Positions 6,299 through 33,948 of a DNA stretch of 64,000 nt are shown piece by piece. A program made the translations under genes and the position numbers. The DNA comes from an uncultured Chloroflexia bacterium (GTDB taxonomy: Bacteria > Chloroflexota > UBA6077 > JACCZL01). Position 1 is the stretch's first letter, and every line of letters begins with the position of its first letter. The notes beneath the pieces were generated by a model that was not told the origin of the DNA, made no database searches, and saw nothing but the letters and a program-made list of their open reading frames with translations. Location of the stretch: positions 192,001 to 256,000 of the forward strand of contig CAVXYC010000019.1 in assembly GCA_963765765.1 (NCBI GenBank). Direction: 5' to 3'.

Positions 6299-7102
6299 TT
6301 ACTGCGGGAATGGGAAGTGCTCGGACATCCAGGCTTGCCAGCTTGCTTCAGCATCGGCCGTGCCATTGGCTCCATCCGGGCCATAGAGAAACAGCCGCAC
6401 GGACACGTAGACCTGGTCCATTTGGATCGGAAAGAAGTGAGCTAGCCCAGGCGCCGGCTGAGTAAGTCGGAGCAGGGCGGACGGAAATTCAGCCGGGCCA
6501 AGCTCCTCCACGATTCCGCTCAAGACGGGTGCACCGCTCGCTGATGCTACGGGCTGGCCATTGGCGACGTCCGCTATCCCGAGTGCCGCGGTGAATGTCC
6601 GCCAGGTTGTCGGAACGTCTTCTGGGCTCACGCCCATGACCTGGAACGCTGAGCACTGTTGCCCCGAGAAGTGCTGAAGGTAGAGCCGCAGTATCTTGAA
6701 GAATCCGATCCAGCCCCATTCGTGCCCCTCGAACTGACTGTCCCAGTCGTCCGTGTCGGCGAACCAGCTATGGACGACCCGAACAACGCACGTTCCACCT
6801 GAGTGCGCTTCCACGCTCCATTCGGTCGCAACGGTGGGCGAGCCAGGGCCCATGTCATCCGTGTTTTCAGCGACGAATCGATGTGGCGGGTTCCATGTGG
6901 TGATGACTGACGCCGAGTCCATGCCCGGTCCAAAGCTGGACGTCGTGATCCCTCCTTCACGTTGCTCCACGGTTGAAGGCACGAACCACGATGAGATCCC
7001 TGGCCCCGATGCGATTGCGTTCCAGACGTCTTCCGGAGAGCCGGGGACTTCCACCTCCGCTTGAACAAACCGACGACCTGACTCGTCTTTCCTCACAGGC
7101 AT
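6299..7102 (-). CDS. SRPBCC/AHSA1 domain protein
   Basis: EDVWNAIASGPGISSWF and WNPPHRF motifs. Confidence 0.88.
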   Translation of the reverse strand: MPVRKDESGRRFVQAEVEVPGSPEDVWNAIASGPGISSWFVPSTVEQREGGITTSSFGPGMDSASVITTWNPPHRFVAENTDDMGPGSPTVATEWSVEAHSGGTCVVRVVHSWFADTDDWDSQFEGHEWGWIGFFKILRLYLQHFSGQQCSAFQVMGVSPEDVPTTWRTFTAALGIADVANGQPVASASGAPVLSGIVEELGPAEFPSALLRLTQPAPGLAHFFPIQMDQVYVSVRLFLYGPDGANGTADAEASWQAWMSEHFPFPQ

Positions 7103-7108
7103 GCGCGT

Positions 7109-7702
7109 CTACTCCTCTCCCTCTTCAATAAGTAGGGGGTGAGCCACCAGCACGATGCGATGCGGCCGCCCGCCGGGCGCCGATTCGTCGTGATACTTGG
7201 CGGCGAGTGTTGTAATCGATTGGGTTAGCTCGCGACTGAACGCAGCGCGCTCTGCGGCCGAACGAAATCGAATCTCCGTATCGATCGAGAGCGTGGCCAG
7301 ATACTTGCCCGCGGCTTCCGAGCGGTGGATGAGATTGCTCACCTCGCGGACAATTCGGGCGCCGAGTGCGATGAGATAGCTTGCGGAGAGCCGATCACGC
7401 GCGCGGGCCGGATCGCTAGCCACAGGTCCCAGAGCCCCGGGAGAGACGACGTACGACGTCGCTGTGGCAACTAGCTTGCGCTCGGTAAGGCCCCCCCAGC
7501 GGCGCTCTTCCGCCACGTGAACGAGTCCACTCGATTCCAGCGCCCGCAGATGATAGTTGAGCTTTTGCCGGGCAATTCCCAACCTCGCCGAGAGCGCCGC
7601 CGCGGAAGCCGGCTCGGACAGCTCGGCCAGGAGCCGGCTCCGAATCGAGTCCAGCGCAACCGTCGCCACGGCCGGGTTCTCGATGACTTCCACGTCAAGC
7701 AT
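7109..7702 (-). CDS. ArsR-like HTH transcriptional regulator
   Basis: RSRLLAELSEPASAAALSARLGIARQKLNYHLRALE helix-turn-helix. Confidence 0.88.
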   Translation of the reverse strand: MLDVEVIENPAVATVALDSIRSRLLAELSEPASAAALSARLGIARQKLNYHLRALESSGLVHVAEERRWGGLTERKLVATATSYVVSPGALGPVASDPARARDRLSASYLIALGARIVREVSNLIHRSEAAGKYLATLSIDTEIRFRSAAERAAFSRELTQSITTLAAKYHDESAPGGRPHRIVLVAHPLLIEEGEE

Positions 7703-25324: not shown

Positions 25325-25499
25325 ATGTGACCGGAGCCACAGTCTCTAAAGCCCTGCCCCTTAGAACGACAGCCCCGGTGATCGGGAGCCCCCGCCGCGG
25401 CATAAACACCCCAGCGCGAAAAAATTCCCCGGTCTCCACAGGCCGACTGTTATGCTCAACTCTAATCGCGATCCCTCAACAGAAGGCAGCAACAGATAT

Positions 25500-25916
25500 A
25501 TGGCCGCACAAGCCGCCTACCACATCCAGCCCAACGCTCCCAACCTGCTCATCCGGACTCTCTGGTTCGTCTTAATCGGCTGGTGGCTCGGCGGAGTTCT
25601 CACCGCCATCGCCTGGTTTCTCTTCGTCACCATTATCGGTCTGCCGCTGGGCCTGTACATCGTCAATCGATTGCCCACCGCCATGACCCTCCGCCCTCAA
25701 GAACAGCAGTTCCGAGTGGAGAATGGCATCGCGGTCCAGGGCCAGGAGCAGTTGCCGTTTCTGTTGCGTGCCCTCTACTTCTTCCTGATCGGCTGGTGGC
25801 TCACGGGCGTATGGATGGCCGCCGCCTATGCCTGCCTGACCACCATCATCCTTCTCCCGGTCAGCTTCTGGATGTACAACCGCATCGGCGCGGTGACGAC
25901 GCTGTACCGGTCATAG
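25500..25916 (+). CDS. YccF-domain inner membrane protein, copy 1
   Basis: LWFVLIGWWLG ... TIIGLPLG unit occurring twice. Confidence 0.88.
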   Translation: MAAQAAYHIQPNAPNLLIRTLWFVLIGWWLGGVLTAIAWFLFVTIIGLPLGLYIVNRLPTAMTLRPQEQQFRVENGIAVQGQEQLPFLLRALYFFLIGWWLTGVWMAAAYACLTTIILLPVSFWMYNRIGAVTTLYRS

Positions 25917-26016: not shown

Positions 26017-26445
26017 CTATTCAGACGGAAAGCGTCGCCTAAATTCCTGCGCCAGCGTTTCGCCGGCTGCCTCTACGAGCTTGCCTACTATTGGGTTGAC
26101 GATCACTCCCGTTACGGCTCCCGCGAGCGCGGGGACATTCTTGGCAAACCAGTTCCGCACGTACTCCATTGTGGTGAGGTCGGGCTTCTCCTCCGCCACG
26201 GCCTGCTGTAGCTCGTTCACTCGCTCCAGCGCCGCCCCCTGGAGCTCCGGTGGAGCCTCGACAGCGATCCGAGCACGGACGCCCTCGATGGCGCCGAGCA
26301 GCTCGTTCAACTCACTCTCGGTGACGCCGCTTGACGTCACCGTGGTCTGACTTTGACTGATGCCCTTGCCGATCGCTACCTGGCCACTGATGTCTCCGGT
26401 CACGGTTCCGTGGATGACATCGCCTTCTCGAGATTGTTCGCTCAT
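26017..26445 (-). CDS. Small helical protein with N-terminal GDISGQVAIGKGISQ motif (putative amyloid-motif effector/partner)
   Basis: Intact 142-aa ORF, AGGAGG RBS, 16 nt downstream of the STAND gene stop. Confidence 0.8.
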   Translation of the reverse strand: MSEQSREGDVIHGTVTGDISGQVAIGKGISQSQTTVTSSGVTESELNELLGAIEGVRARIAVEAPPELQGAALERVNELQQAVAEEKPDLTTMEYVRNWFAKNVPALAGAVTGVIVNPIVGKLVEAAGETLAQEFRRRFPSE

Positions 26446-26461
26446 GAGTCCTCCTGATGGG

Positions 26462-28863
26462 CTAGTTGATGATGACTCGACCGGGGGTTGGAGTGCGTGT
26501 CGGCGTCGGCTGAAGTACGCGTGTTGGTGTCGGCGTCGTCTGAGGTACGCGTGTTGGTGTTGGCGTCATCGTCCGCGTTGGTGTCGCCGTCGCCGCGGCG
26601 GGAAGCTCCACCTGGAGCGCCGCCGAGGTGTTGTTGGACTCGTCTCCTTCCTGCACGCGGCAGGTCGGCGGCTGAAACTCCTCGCCGGCACAGCTATCCG
26701 CGGTGATCTGGAGCGCAACCGATTGACCCGCCAGCGAGAGCGGCAGTACGATGGTGCCGGCAAACGAGACGGCGCTGCCGGCTGCCAGGGGGCCATCGGT
26801 GAACGGGTAGCTGGGGGAGCGCTGTCCGGGAACCACAAACGGCGCCTCGAAGGTATCGCGGCCGACGCTTCCGATCCGCCCGGTGAAGCTGGCTGAGAGC
26901 TTGAAGATTGGAGCGGGCTGTCCCCCCTGATTTCGAACATCGACACGAACCGGCACGAGGAGACGTTCATCCTGCTGCGTAAATCCGGGCGCCGCGCCAG
27001 ATGTAGGCCTGCCCGTGAGCTCGAATCGCTGGGCGATCACGTCAGGCGCCGCAACGCTGCTCGGCGAGACCGTCGGGCCCGCTCCGTCCCGCGTCGGTGA
27101 GGCCGTGGGCGTGCGTGGGGCTACGGCCGTAGTAGGTGTAGGGGTGGTGAGGCCGACCACAACGGCTACGGGCGTGCTGGAGGCGACGAGCGCCACGGCG
27201 CTGGGCGTTGTGGGCGGGGTTGGAGTGGGCACTATCGGATCAACGGGCGCGTCCGAAACGCCAGAGCGCCAGCGCCCCCACTCCGACGATGGCGGCCAGC
27301 CCGAGCAGCAGTTTGCTGGTGGTCCAATGCGCTTGCTGGCCGTTGGTCGGCGCCTGCGCTGGCGGGACGTCCAGTGCCAGCGTAAGGTTGTGGCGCGTGG
27401 CGGCCGCGCCGGCATCGTCACCCAGAGCCTCGCGCAGTCGAAGCGCGCTATCGAGGCTTGACTGCGCGGTGCCAACATCGTTCAGACAGAGCGCACGGGT
27501 GCCAAGCTGGTGCAGCGCCCAGGCTTCGGCCGCCTGATCGCCCACGGCGCGCGCCGACTCAAGCTGCCACCCCAGCACGCGGCTCCAGGCCCCCCAGGAG
27601 CCGGACAGCGCAAATGCTGCCTCGGCGTGGCGCGCAAGATCGAGCGTTTCGCTCGGCATATTCGCACCGGCGCCCCATTCCAGCATGCGCAGGATCGCAT
27701 CGCCGTTCGCCTGGATGTCAGATGGGGTGCGCGTCTCGTCTCTGGCCCAGCCGGTGATCTGGCTGAGTGTCTCCTGGGGCTGCGTGCTCGACGCAAGCAC
27801 GGCCGTCTCATACTCGGAGAAGCTGCCGGCCTGGCGATAGCCTCCCGCGTCCGCCTCCACCAGCCCGCGAGCGACAAGGGAGTCCAGCGCGGCCTGGGGT
27901 TCCAGGCCGGTCAACGGGCCCAGCATGTCTGCCGTGAGACGTATCCCCGCGGGAGCGGACAGCGCGCTCAGGACGCGGCGCTCGTCGGGCGGCAGCGCGG
28001 CCATTGCCAGCCCCGCCGGTGTCGTCGCGGAGCCGGCCGCCTGCATGCGCTGGAGCATCGCGGCCGCGGTGGTTTGCTCATCGCGCATCATCGCGGCCGC
28101 CTGCAGGATGCGCAGCGGGTGGCCGTCAAGCGCCAGGCACAGATCCCGCGCTGACGGGAGCTCATCGTCGCGCAGCTCGCGTCCCAGGCCGCGCTCCAGC
28201 AAGCGTAGTGCCGCGTCGATCGGCAGCCCATGAATGGGAATGGAACGACCTTCCCCCAGGAGCCTCGGGGCGGTGCCGGACAGGACTATCGAGCACGCTG
28301 GCGCCGCGTCCAGGAGCGCGTTCACGTCATCGTGCTCCAGCTCGCAATCGTCGATGACTAGTAGGAAGCGCTTTTCCTGGAGGGCCGAGCCGGAGCTCCG
28401 CAGCGCTCGGCTTGTACGGATTCGGAGACTCGTAGAACCCGTCGAACACCGTCTGGAGAAGATCGTCCACCGATCGCCCGGCCACCAGCGCCTGGCCCAG
28501 GCAGATGACGCCGTCCGAGTACGCGGGCAGCCCGGTCGCGTTTGCCAGGTGGCGCAGCAGGGCGCTCTTCCCGATCCCGGCCTCGCCAGTGAGCTCCACG
28601 GGCGCCAGCTCGCCCAGGCCCTCCAGAGCGCCCGCGAGCTCCGCCTCTCGATCCAGCAGGTCGCGGAACGGTCGGAACCGGAACGGCACCGGCGTGACGC
28701 GTGGCTTGGGTCGAGGCGCCTCAGCCGCCGGCCCCAGGTTCACCACGCCACCATGATTGGTGAGCTGCAGCGTCTGGACCTGGAAGATGTCTTTCCCGAC
28801 CGCGATCTGCCCGCTAACATCGCCGCGGATAACGGCATCGATCGTGTCAGATGTTCCTGACAT
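26462..28863 (-). CDS. Membrane-anchored STAND/NLR-like ATPase (N-terminal motif, P-loop, TPR, TM, CARDB, Pro/Thr tail); frameshifts near 28388 and 27265
   Basis: Walker A LTGEAGIGKS, Walker B FLLVIDD, TPR-like EAWALHQLG, TM LLLGLAAIVGVGALAL, CARDB-type VRNQGG and VQEGDESNN. Confidence 0.78.
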
Positions 28864-29157
28864 GGGCAGCGCCCTCTCATTGATCGGGGGAACTGTGCGA
28901 ATTCAGCCCCCGTAGTGCGCCGCGGATCGCTCAATGTGCGTCAGGATGCCGGGGGAGTCGCGCTAGCTCCAGTCTACGCGGCGCGTGGAATGACGTGAAG
29001 CCCCGTGTGGGTGAGCGCCAAGGGGCCGACTGCCTTCCGCTCTGACCCAGACGGAAATCATTGAAGCATCGATCAGGCAATTACGATTCCTTGCAGGCAC
29101 GAAGGCGCTACTATGCTCACTGAGTCCCCCGAAACAATTATTCGCAGGTGGCCAGAA

Positions 29158-29575
29158 ATGTCCGATCAGCCCTCCGTACGATATTCAACCCAGTGCCCCC
29201 AACATCATCATCCGCATCCTATGGTTCGTTCTCATTGGATGGTGGCTCGGGGCCATCGTCTCGGCGATCGCCTGGTTCCTGAACATCACGATCATCGGGC
29301 TCCCGCCGGGCCTCTATCTGATAAACCGACTCCCCACCATCATCACACTCCGCCCGCAAGAGCAGAACATCCGAGTGGAGCACGGTGTGGTCAAGCACGG
29401 CCAGGACCAGCAACCGTTCATGTTGCGCGCGCTCTACTTTGCGCTCGTCGGCTGGTGGCTCTCCGGCCTCTGGCTGGTCGCCGCCTACGCCGCCCTGATG
29501 ACCGTCATTTTGATCCCCGCCAGCTTCTGGATGTACAACCGCATCGGCGCGGTGACGACGCTCTATCGGTCGTAG
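29158..29575 (+). CDS. YccF-domain inner membrane protein, copy 2 (frameshift near 5' end)
   Basis: Paralogous to copy 1; ends SFWMYNRIGAVTTLYRS identically. Confidence 0.85.
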
Positions 29576-29624
29576 CCTGACTATGGTGAGACCTGCCGCT
29601 CACCATCTGGAACGGCAACGAAGG

Positions 29625-30810
29625 TCAGCTCACGTGAGCCGCTTGACCCTGGAGGAACTTCCAGCATCAGGCGGCTGACGGCCTCGGGCTGTTCCTGCTG
29701 GACCCAGTGCCCGGCTCCTTCCAGCAGGTGGATGCCCCGCAGATCGGTGCAGATCTGTGTCGCGCATCGCCTCCAGACGCCCGGCCCGCTGGTAGACGCC
29801 CCAGTCGCTCGTACCGCTGATGAACAACGAGGGCACGTCGATGGTGCGGTCGGAGTACACCCGCAGCTCAGCCGAATAGGCGGGGTCCGTTTGCAGGCGG
29901 TACGAATTGAGACCGCCCTGGAAGCCCGTGCGCGTGTACTCATCCGAGCACACGCGCAGCTCCTCCTCCGTGAGCCACTGATTCGCCGCGATCTCCTCGG
30001 GCGTGGGCATGTCCAGGGCCACGTTCTCCGGCATCGTCTTGTCGAGGTCCATGACGTAGTAGCGCGGCATCTTGGCGAGCTCGGTTGCGCTGAACGCCGT
30101 CAGCGGGTGCGGCGCGTTTCCCTTCCAGTCGGCGCTCTTCACGTGGTAGTAGGCGCGCAGGAAATCGTGGATGCCCTGCTTCGCACCCATCCACTCGTCG
30201 TTCGCTTCGCGTCGCGCGTTGTACCAGTGGTAGTGCTTGCGCGGTTGGGGCAGCGCCGCCAGGTCGTCGTGGACGCTCGGGCCCGCCGGGGCTGGGGCTT
30301 CGGCGGCTCGTTCGCGGTGTTGAACGGGAACGCTGGCGCGCCCTCGAACGGCGCCGTCATCAGCACCATCGAGCGAAACACGTCCGGTCGGATCAGCGTG
30401 GACCAGCCCGTGACTCCCGCGCCGAAGTCATGCCCCACAATCATCGCCACGTTGCGATACCCGAGCGCGTAGACCAGCCCGAGGGTATCGCGCACGCGCT
30501 CCATGGGCCGCCACGGCCAGAGGCTATCGTCAAAGGTGACGTCGGTGCCGCCCGAGCGACCGTAGCCGCGATGATCCGGTGCCACCACGTGGTAGCCGGC
30601 CTCGGCCAGCGGCAGCATCACCTTGCGCCAGCTATACGCCAGCTCCGGATAGCCGTGCATCAGGAGCACCAGTGGCCGCCCGGGCTCCTCGAAGCCGGCC
30701 TCCAGGATGTGCATGGTGATGCCGTTGTTGTTGTCCACGAAGCGGGAGCGAATCCCGACGGGGATGGTGGTCTGGCCGTAGGCGACGTCGCGGTTGATGG
30801 TTCCTGACAT
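29625..30810 (-). CDS. Alpha/beta hydrolase (epoxide hydrolase-like), several frameshifts
   Basis: LMHGYPELAYSW, GHDFGA nucleophile elbow, GAGHWVQQE. Confidence 0.88.
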
Positions 30811-31401
30811 GGTCCCCTCGTCGCGCGTAGAGCGTCCTGAAGATGCGCTCCCGATTATGGTGGCTACAGGTGTCTCCTGCACCGTGAGTGCGACGTACCG
30901 CCGCTCATTCGGTCCGACGATATCGAGCCGGCAACTCGTAGAGCGGGCATCCCTGCCCGCTGCGGCCGTCTCTCCCAATCTGCCCAGGCCAACGGTCTCG
31001 CGCCATCAACCAACACTGGGAGCGCCGCCGTTTCGGCGGCCCGGCCGTGGAGGCCGCGCTCTCAAAGACTCCTCATGACAGTTGCGGCTTCCGTGAAGGT
31101 GCGGCCTCGACGGCCGGGCCCGCCGGGGACAGCGGCGGTCCCAGTCTCAAGCAGGCGCACCCTCGGTCGCATTGCTATGCTCGATCATCGGTTCCTAGAG
31201 CAAATCGGATCTAGCACTCAGTCCGCCTACGTCCTTGAGCCGCGCGCCAAGATAGCCGCCACTTACGCCGGCCTCATGACCGTCGACCACATTCCAGTTG
31301 GCTTCAGTGCGATCGTCGCAAGACAAAGGCTGGCCCGTCGAATGAGTACAATCGCCACGGTCTTCTTAACTTATTGGCATTGAAACCGTCTGATTACATC
31401 C

Positions 31402-31929
31402 GTGGCTATTGAATATGCGGTTCTCCGCAAGGATAACCCTCGCTCGCCTGAGACTCTCGCCATAGTTGAACAGTTGGCGCAGCAGTTCCATGCATACTTA
31501 GCAGGTACCGAGATTCTAGCTGGAATAGCATCTGTACACAGGCTCGGCGCATCCAGTGTCGAGGTGCAGACCATCATCCAACCCGGCGCTGAAGCGCTGG
31601 GCTTTGTGTCAGAGAAGAGGGGGCTGTTTCTAGACTATCCCGTCGCTGCACTTAGACCTGACTACTTCCTGGCCGTACGGGACTCGGGAATAATCCTAGA
31701 GGTGGAGCGTGGGAAAACCACGATCAACAACATGGATATTCTCGATTTCTGGAAGTGTCATATTTGTGAGAGCGCGGACTACTTGTTTCTTCTCGTTCCC
31801 CAGCTTAGGACAACGCTGAATGGCCGAGTTGTCATGCGCCCATTCAACCACGTTTACAATCGGTTGAGCACTTTTTTCGCACCCAGGAACTACGTCAATG
31901 TTGAAGCAGTCTTCTTGTTCGGCTACTGA
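31402..31929 (+). CDS. Putative PD-(D/E)xK nuclease, restriction-endonuclease-like
   Basis: LRPDY ... ILEVERGK motif; more AT-rich than flanks. Confidence 0.6.
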   Translation: MAIEYAVLRKDNPRSPETLAIVEQLAQQFHAYLAGTEILAGIASVHRLGASSVEVQTIIQPGAEALGFVSEKRGLFLDYPVAALRPDYFLAVRDSGIILEVERGKTTINNMDILDFWKCHICESADYLFLLVPQLRTTLNGRVVMRPFNHVYNRLSTFFAPRNYVNVEAVFLFGY

Positions 31930-32011
31930 TGGGCCGAGTGACACTCGCTTTGCGAGACTGCGGGGCGCAGCTTCGCCGCCGAGCACTCTCACGCTGGTAG
32001 AATTCATACCA

Positions 32012-32189
32012 ATGGAAACCACCAAGCAGCGCGCCATTCAAGCCCTGAGCACGTTGCCTGACGATGCCACGATTGATGATGCGATCGATCAGCTGTGCTT
32101 CCTCGCAAAAGTGGACAAAGGCCTCCGCGACTCGGACAGCCGGGCAGCCGAGCTCTCATGAGGAGATTCGCGAACAGTTCCTGGCGTGA
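32012..32189 (+). CDS. Putative type II antitoxin (frameshift near 3' end)
   Basis: METTKQRAIQALSTLPDDATIDDAIDQLCFLAKVDKGLRD ... SHEEIRE; stop overlaps toxin start (GTGA). Confidence 0.75.
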
Positions 32190-32467
32190 GACGCCTGCGT
32201 TGGGCTGATCGGGGCCCGACGAGATCTCGGCGCGATTAGGGACTTCGTGAGCGGCGATTCATCCCAGTACGCTCCCTTATTCTGGCAAGGTTGATTGCGC
32301 GGGCGGTCCGAATTCCCCGAGGCTGGCAGGGTTGTCCCATCTCAGATCCCCAGATTCGCGAGATTATCGTTCGTCCATACTGCATCGTTTACCGTTTTGT
32401 CGGTGATGACGAGACCCATCTCATCACAGTGCACCACGGAGCCAGGCAGTTTCCCGAGACTCTCTAA
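32186..32467 (+). CDS. RelE/ParE family toxin, frameshifted or degraded
   Basis: Read across frames: LRWADR..RDLGAIRDFV ... FPEAGRVVP ... IREIIVRPYCIVYR ... VHHGARQ. Confidence 0.75.
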
Positions 32468-32803: not shown

Positions 32804-33948
32804 TCAGAATCGCGCCAAACATCCTCGAGCAAAGTCTCGAGGGCTTGGGGCCCGCCTCTTGCGATTTGAGATGTCTGATGCAGCTCGCTGTACAGCTTCC
32901 GCATATGCCACCGCGAGTTCATGATGGGGCGACGCGAGACTGACCTGTGTTTCTGACGGCGGATCTGTGGTCATATCGACCACCGTGATGTCCAACTCGA
33001 TTTCGTCATCCTCATCTGACGCACCTTCGGAAGTGCCCGATCTAGCGGAAAGCACAGAGTCAACCTCATAGCTGAACTCGTTAAGTCGGGTTGCTGCCAG
33101 GAGCCGACCTCCTTGGTCAGCGGGAGAGCTTCGATGTGTGTCGCGAATACGAGGAAGAGCGTGTAGAAGTCGGACTTTTTTCTCCATCGAAGTAACTTGA
33201 CGTTAGGAAGCACCTGCCTAAGCTCACCAAGAACTTCAGCGAACAATTCTAATAGTCTATCGCTGTCATCGAATTCGTCTTCATAGGTTCTATACCATGA
33301 GTCAATTGATTGCTTCTTGTTTTGTATGCCATGGAGACTTGCAACAGCAATCTCGCTAACAAACTCACGATCTAACATTCTTCTGATGTCATTAGCGCTG
33401 AATATCCCAAAGTTAATCCAGATAGGATTATCAGATATCGTATCGATAACTTGTATGAATTTCCCCCAATAAGTTGAATGACGCAACTCTTGCTGATTTA
33501 ATGCGATAGTATTTCTATTTAACCTCTGAAAAATCGTGCTCAAAATATCTCTAGAAAGATCGGGTAATATTCTGACAACAAAGTTATACCCAAAGAGCCT
33601 CCTCCTGTCTTCAGAAGATAGATCATCAAAGGACATGTCGGGCCAATCTCCGGAATCTTGGCTTCGTATCTCAAATTGACCCTCGATGAACTCAAGGCAG
33701 GTCCTAACCCTTTGCTGGCCGTCGACAACGATGAATCGCTCTTTCCCCTCCTCGTCGACCAGCTCTTGAATGTAGAGTTCGGGAACTGGATAGCCCTGAA
33801 GTATGGTGTCGATTAAGAGGCTTTTCTGTGGGGTAAGCCAGACTGGATTTCTTTGGAATGGCGGAGCAATCTCTAGTTCTCCGGCGTCGGATCTAGTCTT
33901 CAGCCAGCTGACCGTGCGATTAGTGTTCCGGAGGAAATCCTGAGCCAT
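32804..33948 (-). CDS. DUF262 (ParB/Srx-fold, GmrS-like) protein; frameshift near 33110
   Basis: PPFQRNPVW, VVDGQQR and FQRLN..LNQQELR motifs; C-terminus YAEAVQRAASD in ORF 32804..33187. Confidence 0.88.

Follow-up and report, generated by a model that had tools for sequence, protein, structure and literature searches.

Do a STAND-like ATPase and the small protein encoded directly behind it form a receptor and an effector that are coupled by a motif present at the N-terminus of both and, if so, is this coupling amyloid-like? The locus that raises the question lies on a 64,000-nt stretch of DNA from an uncultured Chloroflexia bacterium (here called the window), and an earlier note on this DNA had proposed such a pair, joined by homotypic β-aggregation. 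That NLRs signal to cell-death effectors by an amyloid-type route is established for fungi and has experimental support in a few bacterial systems; to our knowledge, every description so far places the motif at the effector C-terminus.

The shared motif and its two genes

As the earlier note had claimed, the N-termini of the ATPase (the receptor) and of the small protein (the partner) align without gaps at 14 of 26 positions, with four additional I/V exchanges, and the small gene has a ribosome-binding site of its own (AGGAGG) in the 16-nt gap that precedes it (Table 1). Neither BLASTP nor profile–profile comparison finds any likeness beyond the motif. When the receptor family was compared with the small-protein family by hhalign, a single match was obtained, spanning 32 columns at both N-termini (probability 95.5%, E 1.5e-08). 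A motif profile trained on 19 relatives of the small protein alone, without receptors, was then run against all six-frame ORFs of the assembly that are 60 aa or longer (60,022 in number); its sole matches at E<=1 were the small protein (E 8.8e-14) and the N-terminus of the ATPase (E 1.2e-10). The likeness exceeds chance because the profile matches, genome-wide, these two products only. A chance match between low-complexity sequences, or a common sorting signal on proteins that make no contact with each other, would be in keeping with a motif that is short and compositionally biased, but is highly improbable in view of this genome-wide scan, the profile–profile E value, the recurrence of the motif, on receptor and partner alike, in eight phyla or more (see below) and a motif sequence that has neither the hydrophobic core nor the basic N-region typical of export signals.

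Table 1. Features of the receptor–partner locus (window coordinates).
Feature	Position	Strand	Basis
Receptor gene, piece 1: N-terminal motif, Pro-rich linker, NB-ARC-type Walker A	28327..28863	-	ORF list, translation, alignment with 24 homologues
Shared motif, receptor copy (residues 6-31)	28771..28848	-	Motif profile, E 1.2e-10
First frame break: one extra base in the window relative to related contigs	28381..28390		Three-frame translation; homologues go on in the other frame
Receptor gene, piece 2: Walker B region, helical/winged-helix part, TPR-like repeats, membrane helix	27240..28386	-	ORFs, collinear P0351, AF2, Foldseek
Predicted single transmembrane helix of the receptor	27264..27320	-	Kyte-Doolittle 19-residue window, score 1.91
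Second frame break	27240..27252		Three-frame translation; P0351 reads through
Receptor gene, piece 3: Pro/Thr-rich linker, beta-rich C-terminal domain (about 26600-27043), Pro/Thr-rich tail, stop	26462..27250	-	ORF, translation
16-nt spacer with AGGAGG ribosome-binding site	26446..26461	-	Sequence
Partner gene, 142 aa: motif, short variable linker, compact helical domain	26017..26445	-	ORF and translation, AF2
Shared motif, partner copy (residues 9-34)	26344..26421	-	Motif profile, E 8.8e-14
Partner helical domain, residues 43-138, six helices	26032..26319	-	AF2

Architecture of the receptor

The description of the receptor as a STAND-like ATPase holds for its type (NB-ARC/STAND), but the window gene is not one open frame: three-frame translation places shifts near 28385 and near 27240-27252, which divide it into three ORF pieces (28863-28327, 28325-27240 and 27250-26462) and of which the earlier note says nothing; an intact relative, P0351 (784 aa), is collinear with it. 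Base 28387 is absent from every covering contig of the related metagenome runs X1, X2 and X3, and covering contigs omit one base at 27249 (run X2) or at 27252 (run X3). Among the sequencing runs listed as carrying the sequence, none was of RNA. A hydrolase gene and a YccF-like gene close by also appear frame-broken. A dead receptor gene, though a possible meaning of the breaks, was set aside because related contigs lack the extra bases and nearby genes look frame-broken as well.

In Pfam scans, the window pieces gave sub-threshold P-loop matches only (AAA_16, E 6.7e-05; NACHT, E 0.003) and piece 3 matched no family, while among nine homologous receptors scanned the cut-off was passed in five for NB-ARC and in one for NACHT, and TPR_12 matches below cut-off were seen in four. 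The AF2 model of P0351 is confident over residues 73-498 (pLDDT 80-98), with paired helices at residues 363-498, and its best Foldseek match is 6mfv (E 5.8e-11), followed by Apaf-1, NRC2/3 and CED-4 (E 6e-11 to 1e-08 across 6mfv, these proteins and Avs3); the top list is made up of a STAND-TPR protein, Apaf-1, plant NRC NLRs and CED-4. On the strength of its P-loop and of the modelled fold of its relative, the receptor is classed as an NB-ARC/STAND NLR-like ATPase. PADLOC gave no match for the intact receptor or the partner, and an NCBIfam scan nothing meaningful.

A hydrophobic segment occupies the equivalent position in 24 of 24 homologous receptors examined, with a helix in this membrane region of the P0351 model (residues 522-535), and from this segment the receptor is predicted to be a single-pass membrane protein, a trait that the earlier note had overlooked. 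The part beyond the membrane helix is the variable one. In P0351 it contains strands that span residues 610-725 with disordered stretches on both sides, and among homologues the C-terminal domains vary between PASTA, LysM, fn3, Ig-like and other types, a Geodermatophilus receptor having eight PASTA stretches after the membrane helix. The types of domain suggest that they are extracellular. PASTA-type membrane Ser/Thr kinases such as PknB have a cytoplasmic signalling domain, one membrane helix and outer wall-binding repeats; the layout predicted for the receptor is similar, with an NB-ARC ATPase and its N-terminal motif in place of the kinase.

The partner and its helical domain

The partner was modelled by AF2 at a mean pLDDT of 90.8, with helices at residues 43-63, 66-84, 90-103, 105-115, 118-127 and 129-138 (pLDDT 94-98). 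Conservation peaks in the C-terminal third of the domain, which is hydrophobic and rich in Gly and Pro, and W99 and P118 are invariant in 101 partner sequences. No DSSP strand is assigned to the motif in the monomer model, and residues 11-30 could pack on the helical domain, because their pLDDT is 84-86. The most hydrophobic 17-residue window of the protein scores 1.45 only.

Fold searches with the helical domain yielded nothing at E<=0.001 with Foldseek against the PDB and only generic helical bundles with VIA-align (best Z 8.0), and a PDB sequence profile search with the partner gave a best E of 0.025; as far as sequence and model tell, the domain resembles no known pore-former. The window copy has no match to DUF4404 (PF14357), whereas 14 of 19 relatives match at E<=1, weakly and over the first helices of the partner domain, with P0037 barely above the cut-off (27.4 vs 27) over residues 36-100 only. 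TCAD2 was also considered as the identity of the partner and rejected: it appeared as an ESM Atlas cluster (0.86, the rest being unnamed clusters) and is absent among the 25 listed of 38 Pfam families for the 19 relatives.

Recurrence of the pair

The small-protein family comprises 511 matches at E<=0.01 among 789 candidates, and 370 cluster representatives at E<=0.001. We examined 40 loci from Chloroflexota, Actinomycetota, Acidobacteriota, Gemmatimonadota, Planctomycetota, Cyanobacteria, Armatimonadota and one Dadabacteria MAG. An adjacent large ORF carries the motif at a score of at least 10 bits in 24 of the 40 (upstream in 23, downstream in L030), most of these ORFs having a Walker A 70-80 residues past the motif, and in L015, L022 and L039 the adjacent protein has a variant motif, spotted by eye. 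Ten loci with less than 2.2 kb of upstream DNA were left out, and 27 of the 30 informative loci have an adjacent NB-ARC protein with an N-terminal motif, the exceptions without a receptor neighbour being L037, L042 and L043. Locus L016, with an intact pair, belongs to a culturable carrier, Geodermatophilus africanus DSM 45422. The expected recurrence as adjacent pairs that keep the motif in both partners was therefore borne out. Searching 30 related genomes at E<=1e-10 did not find the receptor, a result that does not show its absence and would fit a sporadic distribution.

The motif also recurs in other architectures. It stands at the N-terminus of a protein with TIR_2 (P0342), and in two tandem copies ahead of TIR_2, a P-loop and a hydrophobic segment in P0271, and the module of motif plus helical domain is found behind CHAT (P0170, P0209 and L030), DUF4062 (P0210), protein kinase (P0260, P0261 and L043) and EAD7 (P0139) domains. 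That fusions keep the helical module together with CHAT or kinase enzymes suggests that the module is not the sole output, and raises the alternative that the small protein regulates the receptor, either as a silencing cap that occupies the motif or as an adaptor that ties it to the membrane or to enzymes from other loci. Such a role would also suit a partner that has no likeness to pore-forming or enzymatic folds and no strong transmembrane segment. However, no conserved third gene that might provide the output was found downstream of the pair at 10 loci, where the downstream genes differ, the motif occurs in no other protein of the window genome, and the fixed layout, in which a short linker always separates the motif from the helical domain behind it, along with the highly conserved C-terminal third, fits a domain that is switched by its motif. 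We therefore consider a regulator to be quite unlikely.

Position, composition and variation of the motif

A search with a motif-only profile added 112 proteins, among which two classes stand out. The motif begins by residue 40 in 49 of 50 small helical proteins and by residue 80 in 47 of 47 proteins of at least 400 aa; a C-terminal motif was seen in none of these 50 small and 47 large proteins. In the motif, G14, G18, Q19, A21, G23, I26 and Q28 are invariant or nearly so, and alignment with 24 homologues reveals a conserved Pro-rich linker after the receptor motif. The possibility that the motif is a strand of a globular domain, which would have counted against templating, is not supported on the receptor side, where the motif lies outside the folded part, next to the Pro-rich linker and in a region of low confidence (residues 1-50 of P0351, pLDDT 41-51, with a small hairpin only).

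Two 16-residue pseudo-repeats are present on the receptor side in 16 of 25 receptors, and the partner has one. This is the reverse of HET-S, an effector with two motif repeats, and NWD2, which has one: here two usually reside on the receptor and one on the partner. The core tetrad of RHIMs has the consensus (I/V)Q(I/V)G, and the likeness to RHIM-type motifs that the earlier note had pointed out did not hold for the window pair, which has no Pfam RHIM match at E<=0.1 and is missing the tetrad. An LQIG, VQIG or VQVG tetrad does follow the shared part in most receptor copies, though not in the window receptor and not in the small proteins.

Co-variation within pairs was slight. Cognate motifs are barely more alike than non-cognate ones (12.08 vs 11.47 identical positions out of 29, for 25 pairs, after exclusion of three in which the receptor-side motif scored weakly), and 417 of 20,000 shuffles reach the observed within-pair identity, a figure in which kinship is not controlled. 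All four Pyrinomonadaceae loci have a two-residue, lineage-specific insertion in both partners, and discordant indels occur at L021 (insertion in the small protein only) and L029 (in the receptor only).

Measured against the rest of the same proteins, the motif (1,226 residues) is enriched in G (2.4x), Q (3.2x), I (3.4x), N (2.9x) and V (1.5x) and depleted in P (0.05x), L (0.2x) and K (0.6x). This composition matches the bias that the accessible text of Dyrka 2020 (10.1101/2020.01.06.895854) gives for the motifs known as bacterial amyloid signalling sequences (BASS), in which Q, N, G, V and I are enriched and K, P and L depleted.

Could the motif be a homotypic adaptor that is not an amyloid, akin to the effector-associated domains (EADs) of conflict systems in multicellular bacteria, and one that makes a defined, stoichiometric β-strand contact in the oligomeric receptor and recruits the partner without templating or open-ended polymerisation? 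The weak pair-specific co-variation would be compatible with it, and so would the architecture, which obeys the rule set out for EADs in the part of Kaur 2020 (PMC7159879) available to us: the same small element is present on a core NTPase and on neighbouring effectors, one copy on the core component and another on the product of the adjacent gene, N- or C-terminally. This duplication pattern is shared, and the present module is itself fused to CHAT, TIR-like and kinase domains typical of the EAD network and directly to EAD7. Yet the EADs described in that source are small folded α or α+β domains, whereas the piece shared here is a short, β-type motif of ~25 residues that is modelled as disordered on the receptor, and its make-up, rich in G, Q, N, I and V and poor in P, L and K, is of the amyloid signalling motif type. 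We thus regard a non-amyloid adaptor as rather unlikely.

Proposed mechanism

What stands of the original proposal is a receptor and a partner that have an N-terminal motif in common and whose homologues are co-located. The motif probably couples the two proteins through direct homotypic contact. As to the form of this coupling, we lean towards a two-gene, NLR-like signalling module that works by amyloid-like templating, the cross-β nature of the contact being inferred. A complex prediction with two copies each of receptor residues 1-52 and partner residues 1-45 scored 0.18 (mark 0.32) and is counted neither way.

In the templating model, the cytoplasmic part of the receptor would consist of the G/Q/V/I-rich motif (~25-33 residues), a Pro-rich linker, the NB-ARC ATPase and TPR-like repeats, followed by the membrane helix and the variable C-terminal domain outside the cell. 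A signal at the outer domain would bring about nucleotide-dependent oligomerisation of the NB-ARC modules, and the N-terminal motifs thus gathered would form a stacked β (amyloid-like) template, by which the small protein's matching motif would be captured and converted in its turn. Polymerisation at the membrane would then turn on the helical domain, whose action would most likely be to disturb the membrane or to halt growth.

A bolder version, which we put forward tentatively and think somewhat doubtful, is that these are cell-surface NLRs, single-pass NB-ARC receptors that read outside signals and relay them to the inside through prion-like templating of their N-terminal motif onto a small helical executioner of a new class, a mirror image of HET-S and Bell. 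The signals might be peptidoglycan fragments, bound through PASTA or LysM, or other ligands bound through Ig-like, fn3, PAN or SH3 domains. If true, a single pair of bacterial proteins would combine pattern recognition outside the cell with NOD-type oligomerisation and amyloid signalling.

The receptor is unusual in that a membrane-tethered NB-ARC protein carries variable domains of types that are usually extracellular, among them the PASTA and LysM repeats, which bind the wall. Should both topology and templating prove true, the pair would constitute an NLR-like switch whose input comes from the cell envelope or from the surroundings, not from the cytoplasm, and a new small helical domain would join the short list of amyloid-controlled effectors.

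Comparison with known systems

The Bell-BASS/NLR pairs of filamentous bacteria, as presented in the accessible text of Dyrka 2020 (10.1101/2020.01.06.895854), are alike in several respects: the genes are adjacent and collinear, a motif of ~25 residues is common to the N-terminus of an NB-ARC/TPR protein and to a small helical protein, this motif is G/Q/N/V/I-rich and P/L/K-poor, the hosts include Chloroflexi and Actinobacteria, and TIR and CHAT serve as alternative partner domains. They differ in that here the partner motif is N-terminal, the partner gene lies downstream of the receptor gene and the receptor is predicted to span the membrane. The helical domain, moreover, shows no sign of Bell or HeLo in the fold searches, a point that the earlier note had missed, and the order of HeLo and Bell proteins (helical bundle with a hydrophobic helix at its N-terminus, then prion-forming region) is reversed in the AF2 model of the partner. 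According to the same text, the screen of Dyrka 2020 compared Bell C-termini with NLR N-termini only, and so could not have detected the present arrangement.

The rule stated in the accessible parts of PMC12261475 and PMC13506858 places the motif at the effector C-terminus and the NLR N-terminus, and against it the N-terminal motif of the partner is indeed atypical, as had been claimed. Widespread pairs (370 partner cluster representatives; at least eight phyla) thus break the C-terminus rule, and this is why screens built on it missed them; full-text literature searching found no prior description of the arrangement. The Kibby 2022 preprint, in the portion available, remarks on transmembrane segments at the C-terminus of some bacterial NACHT proteins, and that work may bear on the newness of a membrane-bound receptor.

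Bab/Agp with BASS11, an antiphage system of E. coli (10.1101/2024.11.07.622273, accessible text), is likewise a two-gene module with a common amyloid motif. The BASS11 residues named in that text (I87 G88 S89 V90, Q92, D99 and N100), on which alone the comparison is based, cannot all be laid on the present motif.

In HET-S/NWD2 of Podospora, as outlined in the accessible part of PMC13506858, the N-terminal motif of the NLR templates a motif beside a helical domain and so switches that domain on, much as we propose here; the order within the effector is mirrored, however, with the motif placed before the helical domain. Our reading of the pairs described here is that they represent a novel form of amyloid-type signalling between an NLR and its effector.

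A shared N-terminal motif in adjacent genes

The earlier note had claimed that a STAND (NLR-like) ATPase, here the receptor, and the 142-aa protein encoded beside it, here the partner, begin with one motif and are dissimilar elsewhere, and that the second gene follows after 16 nt with its own ribosome-binding site. These points were reproduced: the two copies align without gaps at 14/26 identities plus four I/V exchanges, and the 16-nt spacer separating the receptor stop from the partner start contains AGGAGG. BLASTP between the partner and an intact large-protein relative showed no similarity beyond the motif, and profile-profile comparison of the two families returned one match, of 32 columns at both N-termini (probability 95.5%, E 1.5e-08). 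As a chance control, a motif profile built from 19 small-protein relatives only was searched against 60,022 six-frame ORFs of at least 60 aa from the whole assembly; at E up to 1 it recovered the small protein (E 8.8e-14), the ATPase N-terminus (E 1.2e-10) and no third match. The sharing of the motif by the two genes is real.

Features of the module and its surroundings in the window
Feature	Position	Strand	Basis
Receptor ORF, start	28863	minus	ORF list and translation
Receptor motif copy	28848-28771	minus	ORF list and translation
Partner ORF, start	26445	minus	ORF list and translation
Partner motif copy	26421-26344	minus	ORF list and translation
First receptor frame shift	near 28385		ORF list
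Second receptor frame shift	near 27240-27252		ORF list
Base lacking in contigs, first site	28387		metagenome contigs
Base lacking in contigs, second site	27249 (X2) or 27252 (X3)		metagenome contigs
In-frame junction	26587/27092		one X2 contig
30-nt tandem duplication	26497-26556		
YccF-like gene	25452-25916	opposite to module	
YccF-like gene, apparently frame-broken	29113-29580	opposite to module	
Alpha/beta-hydrolase gene	29581-30978		
Antitoxin/toxin-like ORFs	31898-32467		by eye
GmrSD_N (DUF262) protein	32971-33948		

The module is flanked by two YccF-like membrane-protein genes with a spacing of 3,659 nt and 71% identity across 300 nt. This arrangement could reflect insertion of the module either between the copies of a duplicated gene or jointly with such a gene. 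A restriction-type GmrSD_N protein and two small ORFs with the look of an antitoxin/toxin pair lie nearby, together hinting at a defence-island setting.

The receptor gene is divided by two frame shifts into three pieces, the first break falling just ahead of the Walker B region in an alignment with 24 homologues. The metagenome protein P0351 (784 aa), in contrast to this broken gene, is one open frame collinear with all three pieces and 87% identical over the N-terminal query. When contigs from four soil-metagenome runs were aligned to the region (likeness 90-99%), all those covering the first site had one base fewer (depth 6/6 in run X1, 4.25/4.25 in X2 and 3/3 in X3), and those covering the second site were also one base short. 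Because these contigs lack the extra base and P0351 is unbroken, an intact receptor exists in close relatives, and the window's two breaks represent lesions particular to this strain or else indels introduced by assembly. Assembly error is favoured because one YccF-like gene also appears frame-broken and the coding sequence of the neighbouring hydrolase occupies two or more frames; together the breaks suggest frequent single-base indels in this assembly. We treated the three pieces as one receptor gene.

Conservation of the gene pair

Scanning one genome per species gave 40 loci, spread over at least eight phyla; these we sorted by searching their six-frame ORFs with the motif profile derived from small proteins only. 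At 24 loci a neighbouring large ORF scores at least 10 bits for the motif and lies upstream of the partner in 23 (including L005, L009 and L019, where the receptor itself is divided into two ORFs) and downstream in one (L030, whose partner is fused behind a CHAT domain). Three Pyrinomonadaceae loci (L015, L022, L039) have a variant motif that is weak in or missed by the profile and plain by eye; ten loci, with less than 2.2 kb of upstream DNA, are uninformative; the exceptions are L037 and L042, which have no such neighbour, and L043, where the module is fused to a two-kinase protein. The recurrence of the two genes as neighbours, which the earlier note had proposed as a check, thus extends to 27 of 30 informative loci, and this comparative evidence gives good support to the receptor-partner reading. 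No conserved third gene was evident downstream in 10 loci (RecF/SMC-like, 5'-nucleotidase, HNH and unknown products). At the Pyrinomonadaceae locus L038, a second, inverted small-protein gene (8100-7681, minus) lies just downstream of the first (7001-7420, plus), near the contig end.

Co-variation within pairs, also proposed as a check, was weak. Across 25 pairs, cognate motifs were identical at 12.08 of 29 positions versus 11.47 for non-cognate ones, a slight excess reached by 417 of 20,000 shuffles in a count that omits three Pyrinomonadaceae pairs whose receptor motifs score weakly and does not control for relatedness; the effect is small. Both partners share an identical two-residue insertion at all four Pyrinomonadaceae loci, which amounts to about one event per gene because the lineage is single, and insertions are discordant at L021 (partner only) and L029 (receptor only). 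The weak co-variation and discordant indels therefore indicate one conserved motif family, not many pair-specific variants.

The motif as an independent unit

A motif-only profile from 53 sequences of both sides, searched against proteins of 80-2000 aa, gave 300 matches at E<=10 from the 8,000 candidates that were scored. The best 120 of the 300 comprised 8 small proteins already stored and 112 new ones: 50 small helical proteins (motif starting by residue 40 in 49/50), 47 proteins of at least 400 aa (by residue 80 in 47/47) and 15 others, 12 of them with a Walker A and resembling receptor fragments. The other three of these 15 are a motif followed by TIR_2 (P0342), a zinc ribbon with two motif copies (P0272) and a fragment (P0280). 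In P0271 (901 aa), receptor-type and partner-type motifs in tandem precede TIR_2, a P-loop module and a hydrophobic segment, an all-in-one form with both motif types, TIR and ATPase in a single protein. Nine of the 19 small-protein relatives longer than 200 aa were scanned for domains, together with the L030 ORF; in these the motif-plus-helical module is C-terminal behind CHAT (P0170, P0209, L030), DUF4062 (P0210), protein kinase (P0260, P0261) or EAD7 (P0139); the scan found no family in P0237 or P0218 and a sub-threshold match only in P0206. P0261 and L043 (4124-6658) have two Ser/Thr kinase domains before the module.

The core consensus is IxAxIxGxVSGQVAVGxxIxQ, with G14, G18, Q19, A21, G23, I26 and Q28 (receptor numbering) invariant or nearly so. 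Conserved hydrophobic positions alternate with variable ones and are interrupted by Gly, a pattern that looks like strand-arc-strand units. G, Q, I, N and V are over-represented in the motif compared with the rest of these proteins, and P and L are nearly missing; Dyrka et al. (10.1101/2020.01.06.895854) describe this bias for bacterial amyloid signalling sequences (BASS) and point out that beta-helical proteins share it. Two Gly/hydrophobic units stand exactly 16 residues apart in 16 of 25 receptors, the window copy having one. AlphaFold2 (AF2) modelled residues 1-50 of P0351 at pLDDT 41-51, with a small hairpin (18-22 and 25-29), and the ATPase and repeats confidently; a conserved Pro-rich linker directly follows the motif on the receptor. 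This low confidence and the linker argue that the receptor motif is not an integral strand of a globular domain, the alternative raised previously.

Receptor and partner architecture

Among nine receptors Pfam placed NB-ARC above cut-off in five, NACHT in one and TPR_12 below threshold in four, and the AF2 model of P0351 resembles a bacterial STAND-TPR protein, Apaf-1, plant NRC NLRs, CED-4 and Avs3. A set of 24 receptor ORFs was inspected, made up of 21 undivided receptors whose motif reaches 10 bits together with L015, L022 and L039 (the split L005, L009 and L019 omitted), and all 24, like the window's second piece, have a hydrophobic segment about 430 residues past Walker A. The Pfam domains that follow vary: the Geodermatophilus receptor has an ASH-type Ig domain and eight PASTA stretches, and HYDIN/ASH/DUF1573 Ig-like, fn3 and PAN domains also occur, as do sub-threshold SH3_3 and lectin-like matches. 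Precomputed Pfam accessions among database matches include PF01476, labelled 'LysM repeat protein' by one source, and PF07705, which we take to be CARDB. The P0351 model has a membrane helix (522-535), a disordered Pro/Thr-rich stretch and a beta domain (610-725); the outer domain of the window receptor matches no Pfam family. These C-terminal domains are of types normally found outside the cytoplasm and, because the receptor has a single membrane helix and lacks a signal peptide, the simplest predicted topology is N-terminus in, C-terminus out. PASTA kinases are oriented in the same way. A membrane-bound, probably outward-looking receptor was an unexpected addition to the earlier observation.

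One X2 contig skips 504 nt in frame, which would yield a receptor variant without the outer beta domain; this single contig (259 nt, 90% likeness) may represent another organism or recombination between Pro/Thr-rich stretches. The Pro/Thr-rich tail of the window gene also contains a tandem duplication (93% identical).

One search found 511 partner relatives at E<=0.01 among 789 candidates, and an exhaustive search 370 cluster representatives at E<=0.001, 220 at 1e-10 and 20 at 1e-30, the usual length being 135-150 aa. The window protein matched no family in Pfam, NCBIfam or PADLOC; DUF4404, which no paper in the full-text literature searched mentions, matched weakly over the first helices in 14 of 19 relatives at E<=1, one just above cut-off. 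Conservation resides in the motif and the C-terminal part. From 101 sequences (the window copy and, among 150 listed representatives, the 100 with a length of 130-160 aa), AF2 gave a mean pLDDT of 90.8, with six helices within residues 43-138 (94-98) and no regular secondary structure in residues 1-42 (65, 84, 86 and 71 per ten-residue block). The domain is a confident predicted helical bundle whose C-terminal third is Gly/Pro-rich, hydrophobic and highly conserved; structure and sequence-profile searches yielded no specific structural relative.

Proposed mechanism and comparison with known systems

A three-step mechanism is the best-supported reading, its amyloid part being plausible: a signal at the outer domain would oligomerise the NB-ARC modules, the clustered N-terminal motifs would form a stacked beta template, and this template would recruit and convert the partner motif, switching the adjoining helical domain. 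The motif always comes first, then the short variable linker and the helical domain, and fusion to CHAT, kinase or EAD7 does not alter this order. The order is the mirror image of that in HET-S, whose helical domain is disturbed when the neighbouring prion-forming region folds (PMC13506858). What the partner does once switched is the least secure part of the scheme. Our preferred guess is action on the membrane, near the membrane-bound receptor; the hydrophobicity of the partner domain is moderate, and a role as regulator or adaptor is a serious alternative.

Among known systems, the Bell-BASS/NLR pairs described in filamentous bacteria come closest, along with their fungal and E. coli counterparts; in common are the adjacency of the genes, the short motif shared with the NLR N-terminus, its composition, and the company of TIR, CHAT and EAD7 domains. 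The present pair differs in gene order and in the position of the motif on the partner, which the earlier note had rightly called atypical: PMC12261475 and PMC13506858 place such motifs at NLR N-termini and effector C-termini, and the original BASS screen (10.1101/2020.01.06.895854) compared Bell C-termini with NLR N-termini only. The arrangement was not found described in the full-text literature searched; the BASS tables, BASS11 logo and Kibby 2022 supplement may overlap with it. Unlike in those pairs, the partner domain is not recognisably Bell or HeLo (known helical cell-death domains) and the receptor is predicted to span the membrane; C-terminal transmembrane segments form one category among bacterial NACHT proteins in the Kibby 2022 preprint.
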